This document shows positions 18,120 through 51,179 of a DNA stretch of 64,000 nt, piece by piece (position 1 is the first letter of the stretch; the number at the start of each line of letters is the position of its first letter). A model generated the notes under the pieces. The model made no database searches. It was not told the DNA's origin and saw only the letters and a list, made by a program, of their open reading frames with translations. The stretch is taken from NCBI GenBank assembly GCA_018697035.1, contig JABHSE010000004.1, positions 131,300-195,299 of the forward strand, written 5' to 3'. The DNA comes from an archaeon (GTDB lineage Archaea; Nanobdellota; Nanobdellia; Pacearchaeales; GW2011-AR1). Made by a program: the position numbers and the translations under genes.

Positions 18120-18134
18120 ATTTTGGAGGTTGTG

Positions 18135-19817
18135 ATGAGTGTTAGTTTGGTGGAAAACGGTGCTGCCCTTCAATCAATGCGTAATTCTGATTTTGATGCA
18201 TATAGTGCCTACGGTGAAATAATTGATAACTCGATACAAGCAGATGCTAAAATTATTAGAGTTCATTTTGATTATGTACCTGCAACAACTAAACGTGATA
18301 AAGAAGGCCTCAAATATGTTGCGTTTGGTGATGATGGGGAGGGGATGGAACCTGATGTCCTTCATCGTTGTTTGCAATTAGGATATTCAAGTCGTTACAA
18401 TGATCGTTCAGGTATAGGTCGATTTGGTGTAGGAGGTATCTTAGCTGCAATCAATCAGTGCATGAAAATTGAAATGTATTCAAAAGTCGAAACCGGCGAT
18501 TGGTTGTATACTTATGTCGATTTAGGACAAATTATGAAAGGTGAGATGTCTCACATTCCAGAGCCTATCGTTCAAACACCTCCAGATGAATTTTTAAAGT
18601 TTTCGAATCCAGAACATGGAACTATTGCAATCTGGTCTAAGTATGATCGTCAACCAACAAATGCTTCAGAGATTGTATATGGAATGCATATTTGGACAGG
18701 TCGAACTTATAGATATTTTCTTTGGGAAGATACCAAAATAGTTATCAATGACAAAGATGTGTTAGCCATTGATCCGCTTTATTGCTGTGTCGAAAAAACA
18801 AAGCATCCTGAAACAGCTCCTGCTAATCTTTATGATCCAATAGAAATTTCATGGCCTATTGCTGAGGATGATAGGATTGATGGAGGACCTTCCGATTCTG
18901 AAATAACTATAAAGATGAGCTTATTGCCAGAAGAATTACGCCCTAATCGAGGTGCAGGAAATTCAAATAATGCTAAAGATAGATATATTGATAAAAATGA
19001 AGGTTTTTCAATTATCAGAAATAAAAGAGAAGTTTTTTTTGGGCGAATCCCATATTGGCCGGGAAAACCGATTCAAGAAATCGATAGATGGTGGGGGTGT
19101 GAAATATCTTTTGATGCTGTTTTAGATAAAGAGTTCACTGTTAAGAACATTAAAAGAGGTGCTGTCCCGGTTAAAGAATTAAAAAAAGCTTTAAAAGATA
19201 AAATTGAACCAACTAGAAACACCTGTCTTGGAAAAGTAAGAGAACATTGGGATGAGAATAAGGCAAAGTCAAAAATAAATGATAAAGACAATACAACTGA
19301 GACTGGTCATGAGAAAGCTGAAAAGGCTGCCCAAAAGACTAAAACTCCTAAGAATATAATTGATAAAAAGAAAAATATTAATGAAGAGGCTGAGAAAGTA
19401 TCTAACCAGTGGGCTGAACATGCTGACGAGCAACAAAGAAGGCGATGGGAAGAGAAATTTAAAAGCCAGCCTTTTTCTCTTCTTGATGATGAGTGGAAAG
19501 GCCCTGAGTTCTTCGAGACCACACATATGGGTGGCAGTAGTGTTTTAAAATATAATAAGCGACATGATTTTTTCAGAAAAATTGATGAAATAAGGGTATT
19601 ATTGCATGAAAAAAATGATGATAATGATGATGATGCTGCTGAACAATTGAAGGATTTGATTGATCTTCTATTAATCTCATATGCAAAAGCTGAGGCTATG
19701 TTTGATGATGAATTCGAAATGTCAGCTGAAAAATTTATCGAACAAATAAGGATGTCATGGGGCAACTATTTATCGAACTATATTGGAACATATGAAAAAC
19801 AAAATCAAACGGAATAA
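18135..19817 (+). CDS. GHKL (Bergerat-fold, MORC/HATPase_c_3-like) ATPase
   Basis: N-box: YGEIIDNSIQADAK. G1: FGDDGEGM. G2: GRFGVGG. GGAGG RBS before the ATG at 18135. The C-terminal ~110 aa are homologous to the C-terminus of the next gene product. Confidence 0.8.
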   Translation: MSVSLVENGAALQSMRNSDFDAYSAYGEIIDNSIQADAKIIRVHFDYVPATTKRDKEGLKYVAFGDDGEGMEPDVLHRCLQLGYSSRYNDRSGIGRFGVGGILAAINQCMKIEMYSKVETGDWLYTYVDLGQIMKGEMSHIPEPIVQTPPDEFLKFSNPEHGTIAIWSKYDRQPTNASEIVYGMHIWTGRTYRYFLWEDTKIVINDKDVLAIDPLYCCVEKTKHPETAPANLYDPIEISWPIAEDDRIDGGPSDSEITIKMSLLPEELRPNRGAGNSNNAKDRYIDKNEGFSIIRNKREVFFGRIPYWPGKPIQEIDRWWGCEISFDAVLDKEFTVKNIKRGAVPVKELKKALKDKIEPTRNTCLGKVREHWDENKAKSKINDKDNTTETGHEKAEKAAQKTKTPKNIIDKKKNINEEAEKVSNQWAEHADEQQRRRWEEKFKSQPFSLLDDEWKGPEFFETTHMGGSSVLKYNKRHDFFRKIDEIRVLLHEKNDDNDDDAAEQLKDLIDLLLISYAKAEAMFDDEFEMSAEKFIEQIRMSWGNYLSNYIGTYEKQNQTE

Positions 19818-19823
19818 TTTGGG

Positions 19824-20447
19824 ATGAAAACGAACTCTGAAAAACAAGTCGTTATGGGAAATAAAAAATACCCTATTGTTATTTCTTTAAGTGAATACAA
19901 AGGATCTCCATTGGTAGATATCCGAAAGTACTATTTCGATAAAAAATCAGAGGAGATCAAACCAAGTAAAAAAGGTATAGCACTCCAAAAAAACAGTTTC
20001 AATTTGTTGGCGCAAACACTTATTGATTCATCGCCAGAGATAAAAAAATGGTTTGAAGAAAAAAATGAGTATAGTGCCAAGAAAGCAACTCAGACTCTTC
20101 AGGTAAGAGCAGATGCTGTTGAAGAGAATAGACGTCAAGCACAAAACTTTGAAACTGATAAAGAAGGGTGGCAGGCTCCTAATTTTTTTGATGTGGAATC
20201 ATTAGGGGGTTCAGATAAGATTGTATATAACACAAAGCATAGTATGTATGAGTTGTTGAATCAGTTGTCTCAGGGTGATGATAAATCAGCCTCCGACCTT
20301 ATTAATGTCATCCTAATGTCTTATAAAAAAGCAAAAGATATTTTGGATGATGGTGAAGAATATTCTGCTGATGAGTTGTTCAAGTATTTAGAATTTGAAT
20401 GGGGGTTGATACTTTCAAATTACATTAAAACGGTAGGTAAAATATGA
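19824..20447 (+). CDS. PC4/YdbC-like ssDNA-binding domain protein with a C-terminal domain shared with the GHKL ATPase
   Basis: The N-terminus KYPIVISLSEYKGSPLVDIRKYYFDKKSEEIKPSKKGIALQ resembles the p15/PC4 fold signature. The C-terminus aligns with 18135-19817 (see findings). Confidence 0.6.
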   Translation: MKTNSEKQVVMGNKKYPIVISLSEYKGSPLVDIRKYYFDKKSEEIKPSKKGIALQKNSFNLLAQTLIDSSPEIKKWFEEKNEYSAKKATQTLQVRADAVEENRRQAQNFETDKEGWQAPNFFDVESLGGSDKIVYNTKHSMYELLNQLSQGDDKSASDLINVILMSYKKAKDILDDGEEYSADELFKYLEFEWGLILSNYIKTVGKI

Positions 20448-22078
20448 GTGTCTGGAAGTTTTTGGGCAAGTCAGACTTGCAAAAATATTTAGAGGATGAG
20501 CTTTTAGAGCGGTTAGAAGACTTGCTACCCATCTTTGATCCTAACATTGATGGATTCACTATACATTCTAAAAATACTTTAGCAAAAATATTTGAGTCTT
20601 TTATAGCTCCACGCCTTTTCTCTAAAAAAGAATTTCGTGCTCAATTGCTAAATTCTTTTCCAGAATCTAATTTAGATGATATCTGTATTTTGTTAGAAAT
20701 AAAGATAACTGGCCTAAGCTTCGATAAAAAAGTAAAGGCACTTTGCAAAATTCCATGGAAAGAATCTAAAAGGGTTGATCAGTTCTTAGAAGCATTGAAT
20801 TTACCTCTTGATTTCGGTCCTTCTGAAAAGCAATTGCCCGAGAAAGAAAAAATAATTTCATTAGATATAAAAAGGTATCTGACTTTAAAAGATTTTCAAG
20901 CATCTGTTTTCTATAAAGTAGTAGATGAATTAAAAAATCCAAGGGCCAGATTTATCGTCCAAATGCCAACTGGTTCAGGTAAAACAAGAACGGCAATGGA
21001 AATTATTTCATCTGTATTGAACGATAATGAAGAAAAAAGCATTGTTATATGGTTGGCACATTCAGAAGAACTTTGTGAGCAGGCTTATCAATGTTTTGAA
21101 GATACTTGGTATCATACCAAAAATAAGGATTTAAAATTAATTAGATCGTGGGGGGAAGGTGGAAGTTTACCTCAAGATGCTGACCAGAGTTGTATGATCA
21201 TAGGAGGCTTTCAGAAGCTTTATGCCATATTAAAAAAAGACCCTTCATATTTCGATAAATTACGTAGTCATGTTAAATTAATTGTTGTTGATGAAGCTCA
21301 TAAAGTTTTAGCTCCAACATACAAAAAAGTTACTGATTCTTTAATTGGCGATGATACTTGCATGATAGGTTTAACTGCAACGCCAGGCAGGAGTATAATT
21401 GATGAGGATCAAAATAAAGATCTCGCTAATTATTTTTTTCAAAAGATTATCAATATAGATACTGGCAAAGAACCTGTCATTAAATATCTAAGAGACAGGA
21501 AAATATTAGCCCGAACAAATTACCATCCAATTAAAACAAACCGAACTTATGAACTTACCAAGAAAGAACAAGAACATTTAGAGAAATTCTTCGACTTGCC
21601 TAAAGGCATCTTAAAAAGAATCGGTGCTGATGATGCAAGAAATATTGAAATCATAAAAATTTTACAGGATGATTGTGCTTTGAATAAGCAAATTTTATTT
21701 TTTGCTTGCAGTGTAGAGCATTCACAATTCATTACTGCATTGCTTAACATGCTTGGAATAAAGGCTGCCCATGTTGATGGAGAACTTCCTAAAGGAAGAA
21801 GGGCTGCAATAATTAATGAATTCAGAGAGAATAAAATTCAGGTTTTATGTAACTATGGTGTTTTGTCTACTGGTTTTGATGCTCCTAAAATCGATGTAGT
21901 ATTCATATCTCGACCTACTGGTTCAGTAGTTTTGTACAGTCAAATGATAGGCCGGGGACTCAGAGGTCCATCAATAGGCGGTACAGAAGAATGCAAAATT
22001 GTTGATTTGATTGATAATATTACCGGTTTTGGGAATGAAGATAAAGTCTATGAATATTTTGATGAATATTATTCGTAA
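20444..22078 (+). CDS. Superfamily-2 DEAH helicase (type III restriction Res-like)
   Basis: Motif I: QMPTGSGKT. Motif II: VVDEAHK. Motif III: LTATPGR. Motif VI: QMIGRGLRG. The start overlaps the upstream stop (ATGA). Confidence 0.85.
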   Translation: MSVWKFLGKSDLQKYLEDELLERLEDLLPIFDPNIDGFTIHSKNTLAKIFESFIAPRLFSKKEFRAQLLNSFPESNLDDICILLEIKITGLSFDKKVKALCKIPWKESKRVDQFLEALNLPLDFGPSEKQLPEKEKIISLDIKRYLTLKDFQASVFYKVVDELKNPRARFIVQMPTGSGKTRTAMEIISSVLNDNEEKSIVIWLAHSEELCEQAYQCFEDTWYHTKNKDLKLIRSWGEGGSLPQDADQSCMIIGGFQKLYAILKKDPSYFDKLRSHVKLIVVDEAHKVLAPTYKKVTDSLIGDDTCMIGLTATPGRSIIDEDQNKDLANYFFQKIINIDTGKEPVIKYLRDRKILARTNYHPIKTNRTYELTKKEQEHLEKFFDLPKGILKRIGADDARNIEIIKILQDDCALNKQILFFACSVEHSQFITALLNMLGIKAAHVDGELPKGRRAAIINEFRENKIQVLCNYGVLSTGFDAPKIDVVFISRPTGSVVLYSQMIGRGLRGPSIGGTEECKIVDLIDNITGFGNEDKVYEYFDEYYS

Positions 22079-22093
22079 TCCGACATTCTAAAA

Positions 22094-23053
22094 GTGATAA
22101 AAATGAATGGACTTCTTAAATCAATAATTTTTAATAAAGACTTTAACGATTCAATTCAAGAATCTTTATCTTCAGCATCTTACGTTTATATTTTTAGTGC
22201 ATTTGTCAAAACAGATGCATTAAAGTGGGTTGCAAATAATATTGGTGAAAATACACAAGTAAAAGTTATAGCTCGCTGGCAATTTAATGATTTAATTTCT
22301 GGGGCTTCAGATATTACCGCTTACAAATTCGCTAACCAGAATAATTGGGATTTTGCTATCAATACTAATATGCATTTCAAAATTTATTTGATTGATGAAA
22401 AAAAATTATATGTTGGTAGTGCGAATTTAACTAATTCTGGATTTCATTTAAGTGGTTTTGGGAATGATGAAGCAAGTGTTCAAGTAGTTCCAAGCTCAAT
22501 CGATATAATGCAATTAAGAAGGTATGCAGATTCATGCTGTATTATAACAGATGATCTTTATGAGAAGTTAATTGAATATTATAATAAAAGAGATAAACAG
22601 CAAATCAATCTAAAAAAAGATTGGCCTTCAGATTTAAAGAACAAAATTATAACAACACTTGATCAGCTTTGGGTTCATGACTTGTTTTTTAATTCACCTC
22701 AATCTTTAGAATCTGCTGAAGGTGAGCATCTTAGTCATGATCGTGCTTTATTGAATGTACAAGGAATTAATTTAAAACAAAAAGATGATTTACTAAATAG
22801 ATTCAAATCCACATTATTATGGGACTGGGTATATAGAACTGTTGGTAATAGCGAAGATAAGTATGTGAGGTTTGGAGAAATTACAGCTAAACTTCACAAT
22901 TCTTTATTAGATGATCCAAAGCCCTACAGGAAAACTGTAAAGAGTTTTGTCTCCAACATATTTGAATGGGTTCGATACTTAGACCCAGACGAAATAGGTA
23001 TTAAAAAGTTCAATCATACAGAAGCATTATTCTTAATCGAACAACAGGAATAA
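22094..23053 (+). CDS. Phospholipase-D-family (single HKD, Nuc-like) nuclease
   Basis: HFKIYLIDEKKLYVGSANLTNSG is an exact HxK(x)4D(x)6GSxN motif. The start is either the GTG at 22094 or the ATG at 22103. Confidence 0.8.
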   Translation: MIKMNGLLKSIIFNKDFNDSIQESLSSASYVYIFSAFVKTDALKWVANNIGENTQVKVIARWQFNDLISGASDITAYKFANQNNWDFAINTNMHFKIYLIDEKKLYVGSANLTNSGFHLSGFGNDEASVQVVPSSIDIMQLRRYADSCCIITDDLYEKLIEYYNKRDKQQINLKKDWPSDLKNKIITTLDQLWVHDLFFNSPQSLESAEGEHLSHDRALLNVQGINLKQKDDLLNRFKSTLLWDWVYRTVGNSEDKYVRFGEITAKLHNSLLDDPKPYRKTVKSFVSNIFEWVRYLDPDEIGIKKFNHTEALFLIEQQE

Positions 23054-23058
23054 TATAA

Positions 23059-23943
23059 ATGGATCTTCCAGGAAACTATTTAAAAAATGTCAGTGAAGGT
23101 ATGGACGTTGAGGTTAATCCTCAGAAAGATAGGACAAGAAAAAAGCGTGTAAAAGGAGTTGTGAAAAAAATTCTGAGCAGGACTCCTGAACACACACATG
23201 GAATTCTTGTTGAATTAGACAACGGTGAAATAGGCCGTATAAAAACAATACTGGATTTTTCATCAGGTTCTGTGAATGATCCCTCTTCCAAGGCTTCAAA
23301 TACTGTTGATGTCAAACCTCCAGATACTGAAGAGATCCATTCAAGTGACGAGTCTGTTAGCCAAAGCAAAACAAAGCCGAAATTCGATATCGAAAAGACT
23401 ATTGAAAATCCAAAAGAAGAGAATCACTTTGTTGAATTTAAAACGAGCAGCTTATGGAGTGTACGGTATAGCGATCAACAGATCCGGGAGTCATCCTCAT
23501 ATGAAATAAAAGAATATGGTCGCAATGCTTCAAAATTTATCATTGCAAAGACCATAGGAAGCTTTCTGAATTCTGATGGTGGACACTTAATTGTTGGTGT
23601 AAAAGAGAACAAAATCGGGGGAAATAATGAAGTCATTGGAATAGAATCCGAATTTTTCAAGCTTCAAGATCCTTGCCTTGACGGATACAGGAGAATGATA
23701 GTTGACCAGATCATTAAGTTATTTTTCCCGGCTGAAGTTTTCCATCATATCAATGATTATATGGAAATAAACTTTAAAGAAATTGATGAAAAAACTGTTT
23801 GTCACATCCTGGTTCGCCCAAGTAAAACGAAAGTTTTCATCAATTTTAAAAATAAGGGACATTTTTTCATTAGGATTGATGCAAGCTCAAGAGAATTACG
23901 TGGAGAAGATGTTGTTGATTATTGTCTTCGTAGATTTACTTGA
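23059..23943 (+). CDS. YwbE/DUF2196-like N-terminal domain fused to a Schlafen/AlbA_2-type DNA-binding domain
   Basis: The N-terminus GMDVEVNPQKDRTRKKRVKGVVKKILSRTPEHTHGILVELDNGEIGRI resembles B. subtilis YwbE. The C-terminus ENHFVEFKTSS..IAKTIGSFLNSDGGHLIVGV is typical of AlbA_2. Confidence 0.65.
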   Translation: MDLPGNYLKNVSEGMDVEVNPQKDRTRKKRVKGVVKKILSRTPEHTHGILVELDNGEIGRIKTILDFSSGSVNDPSSKASNTVDVKPPDTEEIHSSDESVSQSKTKPKFDIEKTIENPKEENHFVEFKTSSLWSVRYSDQQIRESSSYEIKEYGRNASKFIIAKTIGSFLNSDGGHLIVGVKENKIGGNNEVIGIESEFFKLQDPCLDGYRRMIVDQIIKLFFPAEVFHHINDYMEINFKEIDEKTVCHILVRPSKTKVFINFKNKGHFFIRIDASSRELRGEDVVDYCLRRFT

Positions 23944-26895: not shown

Positions 26896-27549
26896 ATGAA
26901 AAGTAAACCATCGTCCAAAAAGAAAAACCAGAGAAACGTCTGGATAGTTGATGAAAGCAAGTGCCTTAGAAAAAGCGAAGTTAATAAACTCAAAAGATTT
27001 TGTCTTCAGTTAAAAATTAAAGGGCTGCAGAATAAGAAATTCACCGCTGTAAGAAACTGGTTTATGATTGAGCTTGGATTAAATACCGGCCTCAGAGTTC
27101 AGGAAATGGCCTCACTAAAACATTTCAATCTTTTTTTAGATGAGGGGCGATCTTCCATTTTATTTATAGGTAAAGGTAATAAGAAAAGATCAGTTTGGCT
27201 AAGTTCAGCTTTCAAAAAGAAATGCATTCATTATCTAAAATTCAAAAGCCGGTTTGGTTTTTCAACCGATCCAGACTCCTGTCTTCTGAATAATCTTAAA
27301 GATGAAGGGATTTCAAAAAGAGCATTGCAAAAATTTTTTAAAATCCTTGTAAAAAGAGCAGGACTCCCAGGACGTTACCATATTCACAATTTGCGACACA
27401 CTTATACAACCTTTCTACTTAAGGCCAGTCATTACAATTATAGATTTGTACAAAAACAGCTTGGACACGCCTCAATAACGACAACTCAGGTTTATGCTGG
27501 AGTCGTTGAATCTGAGGGAAGAAAAGCAATTGAAAAAATATACAAATAA
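26896..27549 (+). CDS. Tyrosine recombinase, catalytic domain only (217 aa)
   Basis: GLRVQEM (Arg), GKGNKKR (Lys), HNLRHTYTT (HxxR) and LGHASITTTQVYAGV (His..Tyr). No N-terminal core-binding domain. Confidence 0.85.
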   Translation: MKSKPSSKKKNQRNVWIVDESKCLRKSEVNKLKRFCLQLKIKGLQNKKFTAVRNWFMIELGLNTGLRVQEMASLKHFNLFLDEGRSSILFIGKGNKKRSVWLSSAFKKKCIHYLKFKSRFGFSTDPDSCLLNNLKDEGISKRALQKFFKILVKRAGLPGRYHIHNLRHTYTTFLLKASHYNYRFVQKQLGHASITTTQVYAGVVESEGRKAIEKIYK

Positions 27550-28180: not shown

Positions 28181-30259
28181 ATGGGGAAAGAGAGAGTTGG
28201 TATTAAGGAAAAAGCCGTTGCGAGCCTTCAGATTGTATCTTTGGTCGTATCATTTTTGGCTTTTAGTTATTTCATTTATTCTGTAGATATCGTTAGTGGC
28301 AGTATGCCAAGCACCATTTCTCTTGGAAACAAACCCCCTCAAATGTCTATTCCGTCTGGTGGATCTCATGGTCACAATCGTGATGATGGAAGTATGCCAA
28401 GCTCTATCAACTCCCCTGGTGGCTCTGTTCAAAATAAAGAATCAATTGGGTCTTCATATAGTTCAAATTTGTTGGGCTTCAGCAAAGGTGGCACTTCTGA
28501 TGCTCTTGCAAGCGGGTTGCAGTGGGCAGCGATTGCCTATTATGCCGGGACGATGCTTGGGGATATGTTTGGGATGACTGAAAAGAATTCGAAAGCTTTG
28601 GGGATGAGTTTGGCGGCTGGCCTTGGGACGTATAAGACGTTGGATACATTTGCCTTTGAAAACGAATTTGGCGCACAATATTTGGGGCAAAATTTTGGTG
28701 TAATTGGTCTCGGCGTCGGTGTTTTGATTTTTGTTTTGATGTATAAGGATGTTGAGACTCAAGTTGTGACTTTTGATTGTATGCCGTGGCAGGCGCCGAG
28801 TGGCGGAGATAGTTGTGATGTCTGTAATGATGCTGATTTGCCGTGTTCGGAATATAGGTGTAAGGCCTTGGGGCAGAGTTGTGAAATTGTGAACGAGGGA
28901 ACGGAAGAAGAAAAATGTGTTTATGTAAATCCGACTGATGTGAACCCGCCTATTATTAAGCCGAATTATGACGAGTTGTCGAAGGGGCATGAGTATAAGA
29001 ATGTTAAGAGTTCGCCGCCTGGGCCTGGGTTTAATATTGTGAATGTTGCTACGAAGGATGGATGCTTGAAGGCGTTCACACCTTTGGAAATGGGCCTCGT
29101 AACTGATGAGCCGGCGCAGTGTAAGATTGATTTTAATCATACTACGAAGTTTGATGATATGACTGCTTTCTTTGGTGGGAGTAATTTGTATAGTTATAAT
29201 CATAGTGAGGCGTTTAGTTTGCCTGAGGCGGCGGAGATTGAGGGTAGTGGTTTTGTTTTGGAGAATGGGAAGGATATGGTGTTTTATGTTCGGTGTAAGG
29301 ACAAGAATGGGAATGAGAATTCGGCTGAGTATGCTGTGAAGTTTTGTGTTGATCCAAGTCCTGACACGACAGCGCCGAGGATTGATGCTACTTCGATTTT
29401 GAATGGTGGGTGTGTTGCCGAGGATGTTGATAGCGCTGAGGTTGTGTTTTATGTGAATGAGCCTTCTGAATGTAAGTGGAGTTTTCAGGACCAGGATTAT
29501 GATTTAATGGAGAGTGATATGAGTTGCTCGAGTTCTTATCAGCAGGTTAATGCGTTGCAGTTGTTTGGATGTAGTGCTGAGTTGACTGGGATTCCGAGAG
29601 ATGGGACGAGTTATTATGTTCGATGTAAGGACCAGCCGAGGATAAATGAATCTGATAGAAATGAGAATAGGGAGAGTTTTGAGTTTAGTTCGAGGGGCAG
29701 TACTGCTTTGGTTTTGAAAAATCTGCAGCCTAATGGGAGTATCTCTGGAGGGGTGAGCCCTGTGCCGATTGAACTTTATGCTGAGACAATGTTTGGCTGT
29801 AATGAGGGTCGTTCTGTTTGTGGATGGTCTGGTGATGGGAGTAATTATATTCAGTTCTTTGATACGGATAAGGAAGACGGGATTCATACGCAGAGGTTGG
29901 ACTTGGTTGATGGGAAGCATAAGTATTATGTGAAGTGTGTTGATGAGGGTGGTAATCTGGTTGAAGATAGTGTGGAGTTTGAGGTTGATATTGATAGTAA
30001 CCCTCCTATGATTGCTCGGGTTTATGAGGAGGGTGATATGCTGAAGATTGTGACGATTCGGGATAGTGAGTGTTCGTATAGTTTTGATGATTGTGATTTT
30101 TCGGTTGCGCAGGGTGTTGAGATGCCTTATGGGAATACGACGATTCATATTGCGGAGTGGAATGAGGATAAGACTTATTATATCAAGTGTCGGGATGAGT
30201 TTTTGAATGAGGGGGCGGAGGGTTCTTTAGTGGTGCGGCCGACATCAAATTTTTTATAA
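28181..30259 (+). CDS. Membrane-anchored, Cys-rich surface protein with four ~100-aa repeats
   Basis: 692 aa with an N-terminal TM and a second TM (VIGLGVGVLIFVLMY). The recurring module ends in FYVRCKDKNGNEN, YYVRCKDQPRINE, YYVKCVDEGGNLV and YYIKCRDEFLNEG. No SD. The coding strand is strongly G/T-rich. Confidence 0.7.
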   Translation: MGKERVGIKEKAVASLQIVSLVVSFLAFSYFIYSVDIVSGSMPSTISLGNKPPQMSIPSGGSHGHNRDDGSMPSSINSPGGSVQNKESIGSSYSSNLLGFSKGGTSDALASGLQWAAIAYYAGTMLGDMFGMTEKNSKALGMSLAAGLGTYKTLDTFAFENEFGAQYLGQNFGVIGLGVGVLIFVLMYKDVETQVVTFDCMPWQAPSGGDSCDVCNDADLPCSEYRCKALGQSCEIVNEGTEEEKCVYVNPTDVNPPIIKPNYDELSKGHEYKNVKSSPPGPGFNIVNVATKDGCLKAFTPLEMGLVTDEPAQCKIDFNHTTKFDDMTAFFGGSNLYSYNHSEAFSLPEAAEIEGSGFVLENGKDMVFYVRCKDKNGNENSAEYAVKFCVDPSPDTTAPRIDATSILNGGCVAEDVDSAEVVFYVNEPSECKWSFQDQDYDLMESDMSCSSSYQQVNALQLFGCSAELTGIPRDGTSYYVRCKDQPRINESDRNENRESFEFSSRGSTALVLKNLQPNGSISGGVSPVPIELYAETMFGCNEGRSVCGWSGDGSNYIQFFDTDKEDGIHTQRLDLVDGKHKYYVKCVDEGGNLVEDSVEFEVDIDSNPPMIARVYEEGDMLKIVTIRDSECSYSFDDCDFSVAQGVEMPYGNTTIHIAEWNEDKTYYIKCRDEFLNEGAEGSLVVRPTSNFL

Positions 30260-30316
30260 TGAGATGAACTGATTAAATTGTTTTTTATATGTCTTCTCTG
30301 GTGTTTTCTCGTCCCC

Positions 30317-30343
30317 AATCCTTATACAATCCTTAAAATCTCT
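30317..30343 (+). promoter_or_regulatory. Copy A of the recurring TATA-like motif
   Basis: aatccttatacaatccttaaaatctct. The second A/T box lies about 25-30 nt upstream of the ATG at 30364. Confidence 0.45.
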
Positions 30344-30363
30344 TGCACTCCATAATAACAAAA

Positions 30364-30903
30364 ATGGAAAACAAATATTTATCCCCAGCAATATATCCAG
30401 ATGTAGTTTCCACTTCCTCGGGAGACTACGGCAAAACAGCGACCCCCTTTGTCCACAAAGAATTGAAAAAATCTTTGGAACTGGTTGTCTCAAACCCACA
30501 AGCCAAACAAAAAAGCTGTCCACTCGAAGACATGTTTTCCGACAAGGCCAAAACCCTGAAAGCATCTGTTAATGCATTATTAGAAGAAATAAAATTGCGT
30601 GAAGATCTGAACGCTTATCAGACCAAAAAAATTAATGGTGAGATATGCAGACAGCACACTGAACTGATGCAGTTAGAAAACCTTAAAGATCATTATCCGT
30701 TTAATCTGACAAAAGATCTCAGTGAGACAAAGGCAAATATTGAAACGAATGTGTTTGAGCTTGAGAAAGAGAAGCGGCAGGAAGGCTTGGAGTGTTGGCG
30801 AGATTTGATGTTTTTGAAAAAATATTTGATGGTTTCGTTGAAGGATTATTGGGAGTTGGCGAGAAAGCGGGGGGTGCTGAAAGGAGGTAGTTTGGAGAAA
30901 TAA
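30364..30903 (+). CDS. Coiled-coil protein, unknown function
   Basis: The start is moved from the TTG at 30343 to the ATG at 30364 (MENKYL) because of its spacing to the TATA-like box. The heptad-rich middle includes EIKLREDLNAYQTKKINGEICRQHTELMQLENL. Confidence 0.5.
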   Translation: MENKYLSPAIYPDVVSTSSGDYGKTATPFVHKELKKSLELVVSNPQAKQKSCPLEDMFSDKAKTLKASVNALLEEIKLREDLNAYQTKKINGEICRQHTELMQLENLKDHYPFNLTKDLSETKANIETNVFELEKEKRQEGLECWRDLMFLKKYLMVSLKDYWELARKRGVLKGGSLEK

Positions 30904-31302
30904 GAATTAATCATAAACTGATACAAAATTCAACCACTACGTTGCTGAAAATCCATAAAATGCTGTTGCGATTAAATCTTCTTCTTAGATTTTACATAAT
31001 GATCGATCTTCGAATTTGCAAATAATTTCATCCAAGGATAATTTCGGTGGATATAGACTTGGCCTATTTAACTTAAAGGATTGCCTTACTTCAACGCTGC
31101 AAGCAGCGGGGAGACAAAGGGATATCCATTGTCTTGAAAACGGAACTGTACTGGCAAATCGATTGAACGATTGGGATGATATATTTTTTCTAAAAAATGC
31201 AGCAAAAAAATTAAAAGAAATTGATTCTTTACCACCAAGACTGTCTTGGCTTCACTCGTGATCTGTACTTTCTGTGCGATTAATATTTTCTGACAAAATC
31301 CT

Positions 31303-31710
31303 TCATATGACTTTTTTTCTGAATGCGAGGTACGTTCTCCCCTTTTTGAATCCCAACTTTTTGAAAAAATCTTTTTGTTTAATGTCAGAATAGGTATCTA
31401 TAGTTAATGCTCCTTCTCTTTTTACTTTCCCCTCAAATTCTTTGACAAGGGCTCTCCCAATACCTTTTTTATGGAACTCAGGCTTTACTACAATTCCCAA
31501 AAGGTCAGACCAAGCTTCAAATTTATTATACTTTCCAAAACATACCCCCACTATATTTTTCTTTTCTTCTGCTATTAAAAGGATTCCTTCTTTTAACATC
31601 CTTTCATAAAAACTCTCCGGAAACGTATTTTCATCAACATCCATTTCTTCAAATGAATCAACGAATTTTTTAATTTGAGGGATCTCTTCAGGTTTTATAT
31701 CCCTTATCAT
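31303..31710 (-). CDS. GNAT-family N-acetyltransferase
   Basis: 135 aa. Acetyl-CoA motif A: VVKPEFHKKGIGRALV. Confidence 0.8.
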   Translation of the reverse strand: MIRDIKPEEIPQIKKFVDSFEEMDVDENTFPESFYERMLKEGILLIAEEKKNIVGVCFGKYNKFEAWSDLLGIVVKPEFHKKGIGRALVKEFEGKVKREGALTIDTYSDIKQKDFFKKLGFKKGRTYLAFRKKVI

Positions 31711-31826
31711 TCAATAATGAAAAATAGTGTTATTTTTATATGTTATGAATTTGCTATAACAGACAATGGAAAAACGAATTTGTTGAATAATTACTAAAGC
31801 CCAGGATGTGATTGAGATTCGATAAT

Positions 31827-32261
31827 TTACAGATTTAGCGACATTAAAATATATTCGTTATCATATCTTAATGTAATTTGCCTAAATCCCAAATGCTTAT
31901 AGAAAGACGGTGTTTTTGTAGATATAAGTATCATCTTCGCTTTAACATCTTTTGTCTCTTTAATTCTCTTAATTAAATCACATATCAGCATGCTTCCAAC
32001 TCCTCCTCTTCTGTATTTAGGATTTACATTTACCCAGAACACATTAAAGATCGCATTATCCAGCCACGATGAATTAAACCCACCAAAGGCAATGATTTTT
32101 TTCTTTTCTTCTGCAACAATATATATTGGTTTACATAAAGATTTAGAAAACATTTCTTGAATCTCCATAAGGGCCATCTGTTTAGCATATTTTGGGTTAT
32201 TACTTTTAATAATTTCTAAGATTTGAAAAATGTCTTTTTCCTTTGCCTTTCTGAATTCCAT
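31827..32261 (-). CDS. GNAT-family N-acetyltransferase
   Basis: Motif A: VNPKYRRGGVGSMLI. The ATG at 32261 is preferred over the TTG at 32270. Confidence 0.8.
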   Translation of the reverse strand: MEFRKAKEKDIFQILEIIKSNNPKYAKQMALMEIQEMFSKSLCKPIYIVAEEKKKIIAFGGFNSSWLDNAIFNVFWVNVNPKYRRGGVGSMLICDLIKRIKETKDVKAKMILISTKTPSFYKHLGFRQITLRYDNEYILMSLNL

Positions 32262-32800
32262 GGAGATCAATATTCGAATGGGTTTATAACTTTTCGCATG
32301 CTATTGCTACAGATAATTCCTGACCTATCTACATTGATCATCAATCCCATCTCATTTCGGCATTATTGTAGAAAACGGTAAAATTGAAGTACGCTGAAGT
32401 TTATATTCCCTCGTAGGAAACACAAAATGGTTTATATAAATTATTCCAACATGAGAAAGAGTTATTAGGCAGCGAGACTGCGACCGATATCTATATGTCC
32501 GACGGATTAAACGGGCTTGAGCAAGAGATGCATATGGAAGAATAATTATGAAACAACGACAAGAAACCTTTTAGTGTGGTGATAGAAAAGCATATAGCAT
32601 GACTGAAGGGATTTAATTGTAGTATAATATTGAACCGACAAGAAGCAACACGCTGGACGTATTGCCTCTTGCCGAATAAAGTATGCTTACCGCTTGCTCT
32701 TGCAAAAAATAATACAACTGCTTTTACGCGTTCCTTTCTTAACAACTTTCATATCGCATCTCACCTCCTTTCTATTTAAATCTAAAACTTCCTATATTTT

Positions 32801-34108
32801 TTACTGGATTTCACTTATGACCAACTTTGTTGAAACCTTTTCAAAATACTCTTTTTCACAGCAAAGGGCATCCGTATCACCTTTTTGTAAAATGGCTCCG
32901 ACTCTGCATCCACCACCACAAATAGGTACAAATTTACAATCTTTGCACTTCCTCCAAAGATTAGCGGTCATAATTTTCACATTGAGAGGATTAAAGCGAA
33001 CTTCCGTCGGATCATCTTTTATGTTACCTAAAGCGTATTCTTTTCTACCTGCCAATGTCACACAGTTGTATATGTCTCCGCTTGGATCAATACTATAGGT
33101 GTGATCTCGCATAGCTTCACAAGGACCTAACGCAATGTCTTTATATGGCTTGAATCCTCTTTTTTCGATCTCCTGGATGAGCCAGAAAATATCATCAACA
33201 TTGGTTTCTGAGAATGCACACGCTTTAATAGAATGGACTGATTGTTTCTTATGGCCCGGGAATCCCAAAATTGGTTTGAAACTCATTTTCTCGATTTCAT
33301 CATTAAACCCCATATTCTTCAAGTCATCCAACAAGATTGGAATATGTTTCTTGGTTGCATCATCATAGTTACCACCTATGGCTATAGGAATCTTTCCTTT
33401 TATTTGCAGTAAATTTTTTACTATATCCCTATAGGTACCCTTACCATTTTTACGAGGCCTCATACGGTCGTGACATGCTTCATCTCCATCTATAGTTACT
33501 TTAACCAATCTCAAGCCCAACGGTCTCAAGTAATCCACCAAATCTGGTGTAAGAAGAAGCCCATTAGTTATAATTTCTATATGTAGAGTAACACCCAGTA
33601 TTTTTGATTTAGAATAAAGAGTCTCACTTATAAATCTCACTGCTTCCGAATTCATAAGAGGTTCGCCTCCGAAAAATACGATGATCAACTCCTTAGGGCG
33701 TAGGTTTTCCATTTTGATAGAGAGCCATTTGCAAACATTTGAGGCCATCTCTTTACTCATTGACATATTGGATTTCACCCCCTGCTCAAAACAATAAACA
33801 CACTTCATATTGCATGCCAAAGTTGTGAGAATGTTCGCACTTATGATTGTGGAATTGAATTTTACTCCCTGAAACCAGTATTCAATTGCTCTGTCTTCAT
33901 CCACATTATCATCTAATACGATACCGAGCTCTTTTAGTTGACATAGCTGGCCTTTCTGTTTGTCATTCAGCAAATGGGGTTGGCCACAGTTTTTTATAGC
34001 ATCAATCGTTTCGCAATCGGCTATGACTCTAGAATCAGAGAAAGTATTAAAGATAACTTCTTTCTCATCACAGAAAGGTATAAATACATTGAATTTTGAC
34101 TTTTTCAT
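32801..34108 (-). CDS. Radical SAM enzyme with C-terminal SPASM domain (RiPP-maturase-like; about 100-aa N-terminal extension)
   Basis: CNMKCVYC is the CxxxCxxC motif. The C-terminal auxiliary-cluster motif is CKDCKFVPICGGGCR. The ~100 aa before the rSAM core are compatible with a peptide-recognition (RRE-like) domain. Confidence 0.85.
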   Translation of the reverse strand: MKKSKFNVFIPFCDEKEVIFNTFSDSRVIADCETIDAIKNCGQPHLLNDKQKGQLCQLKELGIVLDDNVDEDRAIEYWFQGVKFNSTIISANILTTLACNMKCVYCFEQGVKSNMSMSKEMASNVCKWLSIKMENLRPKELIIVFFGGEPLMNSEAVRFISETLYSKSKILGVTLHIEIITNGLLLTPDLVDYLRPLGLRLVKVTIDGDEACHDRMRPRKNGKGTYRDIVKNLLQIKGKIPIAIGGNYDDATKKHIPILLDDLKNMGFNDEIEKMSFKPILGFPGHKKQSVHSIKACAFSETNVDDIFWLIQEIEKRGFKPYKDIALGPCEAMRDHTYSIDPSGDIYNCVTLAGRKEYALGNIKDDPTEVRFNPLNVKIMTANLWRKCKDCKFVPICGGGCRVGAILQKGDTDALCCEKEYFEKVSTKLVISEIQ

Positions 34109-34508
34109 CACAAGCTTCCTTTCACCATTGCATTGTAAGTTGGTGCGATATGAATCATACTTTTTCCTTAAATATTCAACAATATTTATAGTTTGGTTTT
34201 TAATGGAAAACGTATGCTACAATCTTTACACATTAGTGGATAATCGCCAAATTTTTCTCCTGGCTTTTACCGATTGATTATTATTTACATCTGTGAAGGT
34301 TTTATTTGAATGAGAATCTGTTACCACAACATTTATTCTCACAACTTAATAGTAAATTAAACAGTAGTGTACATCATTTTCTGTATATTTGTAATTCCTC
34401 ATTGTCAAGTAAAATGATTAAATATTTTATGAGTTATTGCGTTTAATCAAAATGAGGATAGATATCTAATTGCTTATTTTAACTTTCCCTACTTTCAGCC
34501 TCATTCTT

Positions 34509-34535
34509 AATCCTTATACAACCAATATAAACTCC
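34509..34535 (+). promoter_or_regulatory. Copy B of the recurring TATA-like motif
   Basis: aatccttatacaaccaatataaactcc, 65 nt upstream of the ATG at 34600. Confidence 0.4.
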
Positions 34536-34599
34536 ATTTTACAACCAACCCCATATCCCCTATCTACGCATTCGCTCCCACAAAATCATCCACCCCAAA

Positions 34600-36792
34600 A
34601 TGAACCCCCAACAAGAAACCGAAACCCTCTGCAAAAAACTAAAACCCGTCATCGGCGATCAAGCAGACATGCTCTGGCACATGTATCTATCAGAAGACGA
34701 CCTTAACAGAAGAAAGTTTGCCCAGGATATCGAAATAATCGCTGAAAAATTCCTCAAAGAACAGCCTTTGGAAAACAGACAAATCCTTCTTGAACCCCCA
34801 AGCAAAGAAAACTCAAAAGGAACATACCTTCTTGGAGATGTTATCTACAATAAAAAGAAACTCCATCCCCTTTACCTCAAACAAGAAGACTTCCTAAAAC
34901 AAGTCGGAATTTTCGCAATCACCGGAGAAGGTAAAACCAATCTTGCATATCTTCTTGCATTACAGCTTTTAGAATCAAAGACACCATTCATGGTCATTGA
35001 CTGGAAGCGGTCATGGAGGAATCTTCTTTCATTAGAAAACAAACATCCTGAATTAAAAAATGTGCAGGTTCTAACAATCGGAAGAGATACACTTCCCTTC
35101 TTATGGAATGTATTCAGAGAGCCGCCAGGCACAGATAAAAATTTCTGGGTTGGGACAATATCAGATGCACTCGAAAGGTCTCACCTCTCAGGCCCGGGAG
35201 TCGCTTATTATTTTAATAAAATTTATTCAAAACTATACAAAGGTCTTCCTGATGACTTTTACCCGAATTTCTTTGACGGTATTAGAGAACTTCGAAATAT
35301 CAAGGTATTTGGTCGAGAGGCAAATTGGAAACAGACTGCCCAAAGAATTTTTCAATCTTTTACTCTTGGAAGAGCCTCAAAGGTTTTCAATGCAAGAAAT
35401 CCAATCAAACTTGAAGAGTTGTTAGATAAACCGGTCATTCTTGAACTGGATTTGGAAATGCCAAAAGCACTCAGAATGTTTTTTTCTGAAATGATTTTGA
35501 GATGGATTCATCTTTATAGACTGAGCCGTGGAGAAACTGATAATTTGAAGCATGTTTTGTTTTTAGAGGAGGTGCATAACCTTTTTGCACAAACTTCCTT
35601 TAATAAAGATAATTCAAGTCTTGAAAATCTGTACAGGGAAATTAGAGGTTTTGGGCAGGGGATTGTTAGTATTACCCAACACCCCAGCCTATTACCAATT
35701 GAGCTTTTAGGGAACTGTCATACGCAGATTTATCTTGGACTCCAACACGCTGATGATATCACAATGGCCAGAAAGTCTCTCTTTTTAGATTATGAGGAGG
35801 ATGAATATTTGAATATTCTTAATGTCGGGGAGTGTATTGTTAAGATTAAGAATAGAGTTGAACCTTGCCTTGTTAAAACGCCTCTGGTGCATGTTCAAAA
35901 GGAGTTGGTGACAGATGAATGGTTGAAAGCGTTTAGCCTGGGTTCTCAGTTTTGGGAGTATTCCTGGAAAAAGGATGAAAATAACTTTGCATCCTTGAAA
36001 AATAATATTCAGGATATTTTGGATGGGAAAGTTCCTTTGACTGAAAATTTGAAACAGGAGAATACCCTGGACAAGAGACAAAAGAATACCCCTGGGTATT
36101 CTCCGGGTAATTCGGGAGGGAGCACATCAATTTCAACGGGGAATAAGTTAGAAAAGGAATCTGAGGGGGGTCTTTTATCGTCTGTTAATATAAAGAAGAA
36201 TAAAAGAAAATACCCCGATAAATCATGGCCTCAACATAGACTCCTTATCGATATTTTAAAGTATCCATTTTCAACTATAACCCAGAGATACAAGAGATTA
36301 AAATTATATGTGAAGCTTGGAAATAAATACAGGAAGGATTTGATTTCGGGAAAGTGTGTTCAGCCGAGAAAAATTATTACTGGGAAAGGTTGGATTACGC
36401 TTTTTGAGTTGACGCGGAAGGGGAAGATGGTTTTGGACGATTTGGGTTACGAATTTAAAAATGAAAGCGAAGGGGTTGTCCATAAATTTTGGAAACATAA
36501 GGTTAGCGAATTTTACAAGAATGAGGGATTGGATGTTCGAGTTGAGGAGTATTATGTGAATGGCAGGCCGGATATTATTGTTTTTAAGGATGGTAAAAAG
36601 GTTGCTATTGAGATTGAAACCGGGAAGTCTGATTATGTTAGGAATGTTGAGAGGGCACTTGCGGCTGGATTTGATGAGGTTGTGTGTGTCGCGGTGAATC
36701 GGTTTGTTGAGGATAAGATTTCGCGGGTTTTGAGGGAGAAAGGGGTTCGGGATGAGAGGGTTCGGGTTGTTGGGGTTCGGGGGTTTGGGTGA
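34600..36792 (+). CDS. HerA/FtsK-like (DUF87-type) P-loop ATPase fused to wHTH and a PD-(D/E)xK-like nuclease domain
   Basis: Walker A: FAITGEGKTNL. Walker B: HVLFLEEVHNLF. The C-terminus is wHTH-like (ITGKGWITLFELTRKG) followed by GRPDIIVFKDGKKVAIEIETGKS. It is a paralogue of the C-terminal fragment at 1-726. Confidence 0.8.
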   Translation: MNPQQETETLCKKLKPVIGDQADMLWHMYLSEDDLNRRKFAQDIEIIAEKFLKEQPLENRQILLEPPSKENSKGTYLLGDVIYNKKKLHPLYLKQEDFLKQVGIFAITGEGKTNLAYLLALQLLESKTPFMVIDWKRSWRNLLSLENKHPELKNVQVLTIGRDTLPFLWNVFREPPGTDKNFWVGTISDALERSHLSGPGVAYYFNKIYSKLYKGLPDDFYPNFFDGIRELRNIKVFGREANWKQTAQRIFQSFTLGRASKVFNARNPIKLEELLDKPVILELDLEMPKALRMFFSEMILRWIHLYRLSRGETDNLKHVLFLEEVHNLFAQTSFNKDNSSLENLYREIRGFGQGIVSITQHPSLLPIELLGNCHTQIYLGLQHADDITMARKSLFLDYEEDEYLNILNVGECIVKIKNRVEPCLVKTPLVHVQKELVTDEWLKAFSLGSQFWEYSWKKDENNFASLKNNIQDILDGKVPLTENLKQENTLDKRQKNTPGYSPGNSGGSTSISTGNKLEKESEGGLLSSVNIKKNKRKYPDKSWPQHRLLIDILKYPFSTITQRYKRLKLYVKLGNKYRKDLISGKCVQPRKIITGKGWITLFELTRKGKMVLDDLGYEFKNESEGVVHKFWKHKVSEFYKNEGLDVRVEEYYVNGRPDIIVFKDGKKVAIEIETGKSDYVRNVERALAAGFDEVVCVAVNRFVEDKISRVLREKGVRDERVRVVGVRGFG

Positions 36793-36794: not shown

Positions 36795-36860
36795 AATATT
36801 ATTATAAATATGAAGAATAATATTATTATAAATAAGTATTGACATATAAATATGAAGAAT
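36795..36860. repeat. Interleaved AT-rich direct repeats (iteron-like)
   Basis: aatattattataaata occurs at 36795-36810 and 36819-36834. tataaatatgaagaat occurs at 36803-36818 and 36845-36860. Confidence 0.7.
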
Positions 36861-36913
36861 GATATTAGTATTAATACTTATATAATAACTAATAAAATCA
36901 TTGGAGTTTATAT

Positions 36914-39657: not shown

Positions 39658-39684
39658 AATCCTTATACAACTCCTATAAACCCC
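39658..39684 (+). promoter_or_regulatory. Copy C of the recurring TATA-like motif
   Basis: aatccttatacaactcctataaacccc. It is followed by about 370 nt with several hairpins and no convincing ORF. Confidence 0.4.
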
Positions 39685-40057
39685 TTCCACCTAAACCTCC
39701 CAGAATAAAAGATCAAAAAACAATAACCTCAAACCAAAGGAGGAAAACGATTTAAAGCAAGGCAACAAATTCAACCCTTGCATACAACAGAACAAGTTCT
39801 GTTTTAAAAAATGAAGTCAAGAACTTCATCCAAAATCAGTTAAGAAATCTGAAAAAAACGGCAAGGCCCAGAATAAATCGAACCTTCTTAGCTGAGCCTC
39901 TATTAAAATTAACCGACCTGGTTTTTTTATTCAGACGTATTCCACGCCAAAATCTATTATCAAGCCTAAAGCTGACCTTTTCCAGGCAGCTTTTTTTATT
40001 TTCCCAAAAAGGAGATCCTCGTGAAAAACTAACCCATAACAAAAGGAGGCATCAATT

Positions 40058-45418: not shown

Positions 45419-45445
45419 AATTCTTATACAACCCCTATAAGCCCC
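45419..45445 (+). promoter_or_regulatory. Copy D of the recurring TATA-like motif
   Basis: aattcttatacaacccctataagcccc. The downstream gttaccattccataattaaacacaATG is closely similar to copy E. Confidence 0.45.
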
Positions 45446-49447: not shown

Positions 49448-49509
49448 CTGACCACACAAAGTTGACAATAGTTTGATTCCTGATCTGGGGTTGGAACATT
49501 TTTATCAAA

Positions 49510-49582
49510 CGCTCCGACCGGGATTTGAACCCGGGTCTCATGCGTGAAAGGCATGAATCCTTGGCCACTAGACTATCGGAGC
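49510..49582 (-). tRNA. tRNA-Glu(UUC), no encoded CCA
   Basis: The reverse complement folds as a cloverleaf. Acceptor GCTCCGA/TCGGAGC; anticodon arm CATGC-CTTTCAC-GCATG; T-arm CCGGG-TTCAAAT-CCCGG. Confidence 0.9.
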
Positions 49583-49746
49583 ACAATATTAGTTTATGGT
49601 TTTTGGTTTTTAAAGGTAATGACAGAACGCCCGCGGAGAACACGCTTTAATGAATTATATTTCTACCTCATTAACTTTAAATATTCATTTTCCCTTCCAG
49701 TTTCAGCCAGCTGAAACTGGATATGAATCTTTGAAAATACCTTATT

Positions 49747-50996: not shown

Positions 50997-51057
50997 CTGA
51001 TCATTACAAGCTTTATCTATATGTCTTATATTCAGGGCAGTGAACCCAAAAGGTGTA

Positions 51058-51103
51058 GTGCCCTTTCACGGCAGTGACCCGGGTTCAAATCCCGGTGGGC
51101 GCG
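51058..51103 (+). tRNA. tRNA-Glu-like 3' fragment (anticodon arm to 3' acceptor strand; no 5' half)
   Basis: GTGCC-CTTTCAC-GGCAG TGAC CCGGG-TTCAAAT-CCCGG TGGGCGC G. No complementary GCGCCCA acceptor strand or D-arm lies upstream. Its stems differ from the intact tRNA-Glu at 49510-49582. Confidence 0.5.
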
Positions 51104-51179
51104 TATTTCTTTTAAAATTATCAACTCATCTTATTTCCAAAATACAAACAAATAAAAACCGAAAATCATCATAAACTCT

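Follow-up and report, generated by a model that had tools for sequence, protein, structure and literature searches.

Extreme synonymous strand asymmetry in a DPANN archaeal chromosome and an inherited skew gradient in a mobile HerA-like ATPase module

Strand skew in typical bacteria is below about 0.2, and in Borrelia it is around 0.3–0.4. The heavy strand of vertebrate mitochondria is deaminated (C→T and A→G) along a gradient that depends on how long it stays single-stranded. In kataegis a break leaves the 3′-ended strand exposed on both of its sides, and C→T changes switch strands from its left to its right. Break-associated, strand-coordinated mutation clusters with a strand switch were reportedly described by Roberts et al. 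in 2012 and Taylor et al. in 2013. Asymmetry that follows the DNA strand, with G and T enriched together, has been described under a cytosine-deamination model (PMC2031905), and archaeal skews have been attributed to gene orientation, not mutation (10.1101/2023.11.15.567178, 2023 preprint). The nearest precedent for the skew analyzed here is the G/C-only disparity of Microgenomates, which belong to the candidate phyla radiation, with 29.8 % C versus 15.0 % G across the whole genome, no A/T disparity and a monotonic course along the whole chromosome (Kadnikov et al. 2020, PMC7143001). The present analysis concerns a stretch of 64,000 nt of archaeal DNA (contig JABHSE010000004.1, assembly GCA_018697035.1; hereafter the window) and, within it, a gene at 34600–36792 that encodes a HerA-like ATPase with a putative nuclease domain. 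Two points stand out: the magnitude of the bias in an archaeal chromosome, and an inherited gradient that changes sign within the genes of a mobile ATPase–nuclease module. The pattern as a whole is probably a palimpsest of segments with differing residence histories in an extremely strand-asymmetric lineage, with the inherited gradient of the module added to it.

Asymmetry was expressed as keto skew, (G+T−A−C)/N, which was chosen since AT skew mirrors GC skew in this DNA and G and T co-vary. Keto skew cancels the ordinary purine richness of coding strands and isolates the strand signal. A first-pass annotation of the window had reported, from hand counts of seven 60-nt lines, that the skew flips sign repeatedly. 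All seven counts were exact on recount (Table 1), and profiles of GC and AT skew in 200-nt windows over the 64 kb bear the flips out, with GC skew swinging from −0.56 to +0.69 over 28–37 kb and AT skew opposite to it. GC skew was +0.4 to +0.68 at 28.5–30.2 kb, −0.33 at 30.3 kb and +0.61 at 30.7 kb, and within one open reading frame (ORF) it climbed from −0.55 at 34.4–34.7 kb to +0.68 at 36.6–36.8 kb. The flips are real and far beyond chance: |G−C| was at least 14 in 93 of 1067 60-nt lines, compared with a mean of 4.2 and a maximum of 9 in 50 shuffles. The signal is carried mainly by synonymous sites. The moderate negative GC skew at 31.3–34.1 kb reflects the ordinary purine-rich coding strand of minus-strand genes, because keto skew is near 0 there.

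The window comes from the assembly of an uncultured organism and changes composition abruptly, features that could point to a chimeric metagenome assembly or to hypermutation at this locus in this genome alone. Such an artefact has scarcely any probability. Twelve contigs carrying the HerA-like gene were read and 10 further DNA places were collapsed, mostly with the same neighboring proteins; flanking host and island genes recur, mostly with the same neighbors, in ENA, JGI and NCBI assemblies on many contigs, the longest of 784 kb; and the gradient is also present in homologs elsewhere. The concordance of several assemblies excludes misassembly, and the gene at 34600–36792, found in the same arrangement in contigs from independent assemblies, is not an assembly join.

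The right-hand part of the window is native host chromosome (Table 1), whose skew runs on for ~5 kb past the right window end, as profiled in L001 and L002. The minus-strand genes uvrA, uvrC and uvrB have on their coding strand a GC skew at third codon positions (GC3 skew) of about +0.8 and a corresponding AT3 skew of −0.6 to −0.7; the plus-strand genes for a methyltransferase, a GTPase and VKOR (51180–54535) have GC3 skews of −0.57 to −0.80 and AT3 skews of +0.55 to +0.75. Third-position keto skew on the coding strand is −0.55 to −0.64 in plus-strand host genes and +0.70 in minus-strand ones. The plus strand is C/A-rich for genes of both strands, in agreement with the first-pass annotation, which had described the skew of this block as strand-linked and not transcript-linked. 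Transcription-associated skew in the host was rejected, as the plus-strand genes are C/A-rich and the minus-strand genes G/T-rich on their coding strands. GC skew in host genes is 0.8 at third, 0.4–0.5 at first and 0.15–0.26 at second codon positions, and the 4-fold degenerate sites of the GTPase gene consist of 64 % A, 26 % C, 8.5 % T and 1.6 % G.

The long intron of a tRNA gene in the window indicates an archaeal host. Orthologs of the GTPase gene that are 74–86 % identical occur in genomes named Woesearchaeota, Pacearchaeota or Nanoarchaeota, and the host is a Woese/Pacearchaeota-type DPANN archaeon. Among 24 related loci that were profiled, most have the same synonymous-site skew in varying strength, up to |0.8|, and in the 8 loci viewed gene by gene, skewed genes are interleaved with unskewed ones. 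A sign that follows the strand was also found in loci L023, L025, L027, L033, L037 and L043 of relatives. The orthologous GTPase genes of the window and L025 have keto skews of opposite sign, −0.64 and +0.75. At their 4-fold sites, A in the window stands opposite G 49 times and T 25 times, and C stands opposite T 20 times and G 11 times, giving 69 A↔G and C↔T pairs versus 36 A↔T and C↔G pairs. The host skew is a lineage-wide, strand-linked mutational bias of the transition type and not gene-specific selection. Native genes lie near one of two mirror-image synonymous equilibria, G/T-rich or C/A-rich, set by the DNA strand, at which G/(A+G) and T/(C+T) are 0.14/0.28 and 0.75/0.93.

Because these ratios flip within the purines and within the pyrimidines, with purine:pyrimidine near 1:1, deamination of C and A on one strand is the probable process. 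Strand-specific deamination, one of the explanations offered in the first-pass annotation, suits this signature of A→G and C→T on one strand. The host skew may arise because replication exposes one strand as single-stranded DNA and deaminated C and A are poorly corrected. An account of extreme skew in Woese/Pacearchaeota was not found in the literature searched, which by itself does not prove novelty. A synonymous strand asymmetry of mitochondrial strength in a free chromosome would establish that archaea can have mutation-driven skew and would suggest that a large, uncultured clade of DPANN has a specific deficit in repair or replication. In such genomes, skew marks genes as native or recent and also the orientation in which a gene evolved. 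It could serve as a marker for horizontal transfer, mis-binning and rearrangements in metagenome-assembled genomes.

Most of the remaining window belongs to a mobile/defence island of ~60 kb, which is mostly unskewed and lies integrated within a host stretch whose two flanks share the same sign. This status follows from the presence of integrases and defence-type cargo, with host genes bounding both sides. The island reaches 9.3 kb to the left of the window, as far as a third integrase, and the next host gene leftward, for an aromatic amino-acid lyase and the single host gene reached there, has the host's negative plus-strand sign. Domain calls with Pfam at 1–51 kb include two integrases, RadC, an AAA ATPase, DUF3150, an HSDR_N protein and Fic, together with the products of a dense one-strand defence cluster at 12070–23943. 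The latter comprise a WYL/BrxR-like regulator, DUF4007, a BrxC-like ATPase of 1159 aa, a PAPS-reductase-domain protein, a MORC-like HATPase, a PC4-like protein, a ResIII helicase, a PLD nuclease and a Schlafen/AlbA_2 protein; the cluster resembles phosphorothioate (Ssp/Dnd-like) modification-sensing systems. The island appears to be too recent to have drifted toward host composition. Of the integrated small replicons suggested in the first-pass annotation, the integration of mobile DNA at 1–51 kb stands, but this DNA is mostly unskewed and no sign of internal origins was found in it. The same annotation held that sign changes on the kilobase scale are not a product of chromosome replication, which is accepted. 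Native, captured and recently imported DNA, lying side by side in a lineage whose mutation is exceptionally strand-asymmetric, explain most of the sign flips.

The captured DNA is exemplified by the gene at 28181–30259, with a GC3 skew of +0.61, an AT3 skew of −0.66 and a third-position keto skew of +0.64 overall, climbing from +0.23 to +0.91 along the gene. Its protein has 803 homologs, and those named by organism are mostly from Pace- and Nanoarchaeota. Native copies share 78–81 % nucleotide identity with the window copy and are found next to an S-layer gene in a conserved cluster; they have third-position keto skews of +0.58 to +0.66, and their whole cluster has one plus-strand sign. Homology to these copies begins only at about 28500. 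The first ~320 nt are non-homologous and less skewed, which mostly explains the apparent gradient of the gene. Against its present background, the gene retains the G/T-rich composition of the chromosomal context from which it came. Host-derived fragments in both orientations, another of the explanations first considered, are therefore retained in modified form for 28181–30259 only and not elsewhere. The cluster itself was seen in L059 (1–17882) and L061 (1–15851) as a conserved DPANN arrangement of about ten co-oriented genes without Pfam match, ending at an S_layer_C gene, and the homolog of 28181–30259 is one of its members.

Two genes of the island carry a gradient that changes sign within the gene. 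Third-position keto skew runs from −0.55 to +0.80 along the HerA-like gene and from −0.43 to +0.61 over the 560 nt of a small gene at 30343–30903, as the drift seen on first reading had indicated for both. In the HerA-like gene the gradient is separately present in 4-fold, 2-fold-purine and 2-fold-pyrimidine codons. From the first to the fourth quarter, G/(A+G) at 2-fold purine sites is 0.20, 0.34, 0.51 and 0.64, T/(C+T) at 2-fold pyrimidine sites is 0.38, 0.77, 0.83 and 0.84, and the 4-fold counts of A/C/G/T pass from 27/20/3/19 in the first quarter to 8/6/25/30 in the last. The corresponding ratios of unskewed cargo are 0.40/0.68. The two ends of the gene approach the two opposite equilibria of the lineage about this unskewed baseline, and the small gene behaves likewise. 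Among 196 ORFs from the window and related genomes, the third-position keto slope of the HerA-like gene is the largest (z ≈ 3.8), and a mean slope of 0.016 (SD 0.18) led to rejection of a general 5′→3′ gradient in the genes of the lineage.

The gradient was also sought in homologs of the HerA-like gene, using a DNA sample of 13 sequences; a metagenome scan for homolog loci yielded 10 loci. With the fitted end-to-end change in third-position keto skew at 1.00 in the window, homologs at 94, 86, 85, 80, 76, 71 and 70 % amino-acid identity gave 0.81, 0.77, 0.60, 0.64, 0.73, 0.44 and 0.28, respectively, and homologs at ≤67 % gave −0.35 to +0.35 without a consistent gradient. The expectation that homologs share the gradient thus holds at ≥70 % identity and fails at ≤67 %. 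The flanks of gradient-bearing homologs on other contigs are unskewed, one of them in a context of 50–58 % GC. The gradient is an inherited property of a sub-clade of the module and not of this host. The accompanying drift in protein composition, likewise noted at the outset, is real: N- and C-terminal compositions are conserved across the sub-clade. Compared with distant homologs, its C-terminal residues have moved I→V, K→R/E and N→D, indicating a pressure strong enough to alter the protein. Counts of polarised substitutions suggest a decay of the gradient in L007, L009 and L013, although such parsimony counts are small and biased under skewed composition. No description of intragenic skew gradients in mobile genes was found in the literature searched, which again does not prove novelty, and to our knowledge a within-gene gradient that passes between hosts together with a mobile ATPase–nuclease module is without a described precedent.

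Conservation within the sub-clade could suggest that selection keeps the gradient, for an unstructured C/A-rich 5′ region of the mRNA, for long-range pairing between 5′ and 3′ RNA or for amino-acid needs. A C/A-rich leader follows the motif described below in most element-type occurrences examined, across differing units and hosts, and the 5′ and 3′ 120-mers can form a duplex of −70 kcal/mol. However, this duplex is no better than those of shuffles (z between −2.0 and +0.9) and reflects composition only; specific 5′–3′ RNA pairing was rejected on this basis. Distant homologs are without a synonymous-site gradient, motif-bearing homologs at 70–71 % identity were counted with them, the polarised substitutions point to decay in other hosts, and all synonymous classes move toward the mutational equilibria of the host. 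Selection is a highly improbable cause.

Together the HerA-like gene and the small gene make up a mobile module, which is split by cargo in the window. The central HerA domain of 34600–36792 matches PF01935 at 27.5 bits (cut-off 23.2), and HerA models of PADLOC match at 2.4e-08. A putative nuclease domain matches CoiA_nuc at 18.7 bits, below the cut-off of 20.3, and an invariant D…EIETGKS motif in the alignments is suggestive of a C-terminal PD-(D/E)xK-like nuclease domain. A homolog of the small gene (unit A) lies directly upstream of the HerA-like gene (unit B) in L009, L010 and L019. Cargo of 3.6 kb parts the two units in the window, and in L007 (4209–9915) the same A–B junction holds other cargo, namely a TIR-domain protein, a methyltransferase, an HhH-GPD protein and a guanylate-kinase-like protein. 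The A–B junction is a cargo hot spot. Skew flips sharply from positive to negative at the A|B junction, within <100 nt, and also at 30259/30318; inside the units it changes gradually from negative to positive. Cargo is inserted exactly at the positive-to-negative flip. Across contigs, homology of unit B sets in at the ATG or at a motif (CCAATCCTTATACAAC…TATAAA) and stops at the stop codon or within a few bases of it.

This bipartite motif, CCAATCCTTATACAAC-N-TATAAA, occurs on the plus strand at 30318, 34510, 39659 and 45420 and also in L007, L010, L013 and L056–L058, on contigs labelled archaeal and Patescibacteria. Always on the coding strand, the motif heads segments that resemble transcription units, and the ~100–400 nt that come after it form a G-poor, C/A-rich leader. 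A promoter and a recombination site are both conceivable roles. Just past the stop codon of the HerA-like gene, where cross-contig homology ends, 36804–36870 holds two direct copies of ATAAATATGAAGAAT(A/G)ATATTA. The leader of unit C includes a conserved non-coding C/A-rich stretch of ~390 nt (39671–40057), 75 % identical to L010 13775–14118 and with small hairpins followed by T-runs; Rfam had no match, and a small RNA and a long leader are both conceivable. Terminal inverted repeats were rejected, the best pair spanning both ORF ends being only 14 nt at 86 %. Close homologs of otherwise-DPANN genes (P0013, P0023 and P0137) are labelled 'Pseudomonadota/Proteobacteria bacterium' in NCBI metagenome-assembled genomes; these labels reflect either real cross-domain cassettes or contaminated bins, and synonymous-site keto skew could help decide.

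Table 1. Features, keto-skew segments and recounted 60-nt lines of the window (positions are those of the window unless a locus is named)
Feature	Position	Strand	Remarks
Left part of island, essentially unskewed	1–28180		keto skew near 0; Pfam
Integrase	3769–4872		
Integrase	26896–27549		
Third integrase	L052 734–1966		
Displaced copy of DPANN cell-surface-cluster gene	28181–30259	+	strongly G/T-rich, opposite to local host background
Unit A	30318–30903	+	motif ATCCTTATACAA and gene of 179–186 aa (30343–30903)
Unskewed cargo	30904–34508	-	two GNAT acetyltransferases, radical-SAM enzyme (Pfam); third-position keto skew +0.06
Unit B	34509–36792	+	motif, 78-nt G-poor leader, HerA/DUF87-like ATPase and PD-(D/E)xK-like nuclease
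Unit C start	39659–40057	+	same motif, then ~390-nt C/A-rich non-coding leader; downstream ORFs unskewed
Fourth motif copy	45420–45431	+	one mismatch; heads short C/A-rich stretch; homology to L010 15828–16037
tRNA-Glu	49509–49583	-	near right edge of island
Native host chromosome	51000–59800		plus strand C/A-rich, keto skew −0.15 to −0.41 throughout; His-type methyltransferase, intron-containing tRNA, Obg-like GTPase, VKOR, uvrB, uvrC (Pfam)
Unskewed insertion, 29 % GC	59800–61200	-	gene 60302–61123, no Pfam match; between uvrC and uvrA
Native host chromosome, uvrA	61200–64000		same sign as 51000–59800
Keto-skew segment	1–28.2 kb		about 0
Keto-skew segment	28.2–30.2 kb		strongly positive
Keto-skew segment	30.2–34.4 kb		about 0
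Keto-skew segment	34.4–35.0 kb		strongly negative
Keto-skew segment	35.0–36.4 kb		about 0 to weakly positive
Keto-skew segment	36.4–36.8 kb		strongly positive
Keto-skew segment	36.8–39.4 kb		about 0
Keto-skew segment	39.4–40.4 kb		negative
Keto-skew segment	40.4–51 kb		about 0
Keto-skew segment	51–59.8 kb and 61.2–64 kb		strongly negative
Keto-skew segment	59.8–61.2 kb		unskewed, low GC
60-nt line	29401		G 24, C 4
60-nt line	30301		G 4, C 18
60-nt line	30781		G 19, C 3
60-nt line	34561		G 4, C 24
60-nt line	36721		G 31, C 5
60-nt line	54181		G 7, C 24
60-nt line	61561		G 4, C 16

The gradient may be caused by the deamination characteristic of the lineage, acting with opposite strand polarity at the two ends of a cassette, a proposal that we regard as tentative and rather doubtful. 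Repeated exposure of 3′-ended strands would be the best geometric fit, following 5′→3′ resection at breaks or linear ends sited at the cassette boundaries, and the presumed break boundaries would coincide with the insertion sites of foreign cargo. In DPANN cells that are poor in deamination repair, ends exposed by resection could leave a mirror-image A→G / C→T scar fading inward from both ends. Opposite strands are affected on the two sides of the A|B point, with decay over distance, which is the pattern of breakage and resection. This geometry is favored because the flip at the A|B junction is sharp, the change inside the units is gradual and cargo sits at the flip. That the A–B module is a mobile cassette repeatedly broken, or linear, exactly at its boundaries is unlikely.

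Several observations weigh against the account given here. No evidence was found for breaks, linear intermediates or resection beyond the indirect hint of differing cargo at one junction in the window and in L007, and no native gene among the 196 ORFs has a comparable gradient. The ORFs of unit C and the genes for RadC, the AAA ATPase and DUF3150 carry the same motif yet are unskewed, and a gradient in every motif-headed unit was rejected on these grounds. The motif alone is therefore insufficient, and the gradient must stem from something peculiar to the A–B module. Directional substitution counts have no trend on the branch leading to the window, and the L010 branch is unrooted; this evidence is weak. 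For the chromosome as a whole, no sign switch of an origin or terminus was seen within ~±10 kb around known genes, the reach of the neighborhood view, which leaves the link to replication unproven. The step from unskewed to recent, on which the reading of the island depends, is a tentative one. Finally, the profile of 34600–36792 could be read as three to five steps, which would fit a patchwork produced by recombination.

In such a patchwork, both genes would be mosaics of alleles long resident in opposite orientations or in unskewed genomes. The profile in 40-codon units can be read as blocks of about −0.45, −0.05, +0.38, +0.15 and +0.55, the adjacent gene at 28181 is demonstrably chimeric in its non-homologous start, and the HerA-like family is abundant, with 488 homologs. 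However, segment-wise identity to 119 homologs co-varies smoothly, without a segment-specific close relative; homolog DNA of uniform C/A type was found in 0 of 13 sequences; and the same order from 5′-negative to 3′-positive in both genes would be a coincidence. A patchwork is improbable. Mosaicism of the HerA-like gene at the protein level was rejected, there being none across the 119 homologs.

Damage linked to transcription in a repair-poor host is a further candidate. R-loops or transcription bubbles would expose the non-template strand increasingly toward the 3′ end of units with strong transcription, and a negative baseline or antisense transcription would set the 5′ end. Indeed, the negative phase begins at a conserved promoter-like motif and leader, the positive phase ends at the stop codon, and the gradient resets gene by gene. 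G-rich RNA favors R-loops, and skew could thereby reinforce itself. Nevertheless, host genes lack a 5′→3′ trend, as the mean slope over the 196 ORFs indicates, the host skew tracks the strand and not the transcript, other units with the same motif have unskewed ORFs, and exposure of the template strand at the 5′ end requires an extra, unsupported assumption. It is quite improbable that transcription set up the gradient.

The negative-to-positive switch within the module also has the polarity of an origin, if the leading strand is G/T-rich. A bidirectional origin or initiation zone of an episomal form could thus lie inside the A–B module of an integrated small replicon. Origins within initiator genes are known, for example in the O gene of phage λ, and the island carries integrases. 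Against this, 2.8 kb would have to accommodate two origins and a fixed terminus to give two consecutive negative-to-positive ramps with a flip within <100 nt between them; the remainder of the element is unskewed; and neither repeats or iterons nor relatives in viral contigs were found. Searches of IMG/VR gave no viral-contig relatives of the module, and PHROGs and PADLOC gave generic HerA/ATPase matches only; a viral origin of the module was rejected for lack of IMG/VR relatives. An embedded origin is very improbable. Deamination of opposite polarity at the cassette ends is the favored cause of the gradient. If cassette breakage is its source, the gradient would be an evolutionary, kataegis-like footprint of cassette transfer or cargo capture, and third-position keto skew would record residence time, orientation and break history. 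If it reflects the processing of DNA ends, it would offer a handle, obtained from sequence alone, on the movement of defence cassettes and the capture of cargo.

Smaller features were noted within the native block. The gene at 60302–61123 has a third-position keto skew of −0.01 between neighbors at +0.70 to +0.76, is present in all assemblies and looks like a recent single-gene insertion into the skewed core block. UvrB (55913–58459, minus strand; 848 aa) has a serine-hydrolase domain, PF06821 (residues 459–605), inserted between its helicase lobes, an architecture that is identical in all assemblies of this population. Rfam identified two tRNAs and no other RNA family in the window. One of them, at 52174–52345 on the plus strand, is 172 nt with a long intron, scores 51.8 bits with Rfam and was missed by ARAGORN; it is locally unskewed although it lies within the skewed host block.

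The host skew shares with replication-associated strand asymmetry a sign that follows the strand regardless of gene direction, greatest strength at third codon positions and co-enrichment of G and T. It differs in its larger magnitude, with GC3 skew of about 0.6–0.8 and AT3 skew of about 0.55–0.75, and in belonging to an archaeon and not a bacterium. Microgenomates and the host are alike in being ultra-small uncultured organisms with a strong disparity that is common to relatives and independent of gene distribution. Unlike Microgenomates, the host is skewed as strongly in A/T as in G/C at synonymous sites, and its skewed genes are interleaved with unskewed ones. Vertebrate mitochondria show the same transition pair on one strand, a comparable extremity at 4-fold sites and positional gradients. 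However, the mitochondrial gradient has a single sign across the genome, whereas the host skew is flat and a gradient occurs only in two mobile genes, changing sign inside each.

Kataegis and the module have in common a positive-to-negative flip, here at the cassette boundaries, and decay away from it. Kataegis is somatic, arises in a single event, is driven by an enzyme and has a C-only signature. The module, by contrast, is a prokaryotic cassette near evolutionary equilibrium at synonymous sites, with both C→T and A→G. The island also recalls the compositional amelioration of acquired islands, in that foreign composition betrays origin and integrases and defence genes mark the island. The signal in the window is synonymous strand skew, in place of GC content or codon usage, and it records the orientation history of the DNA as well.

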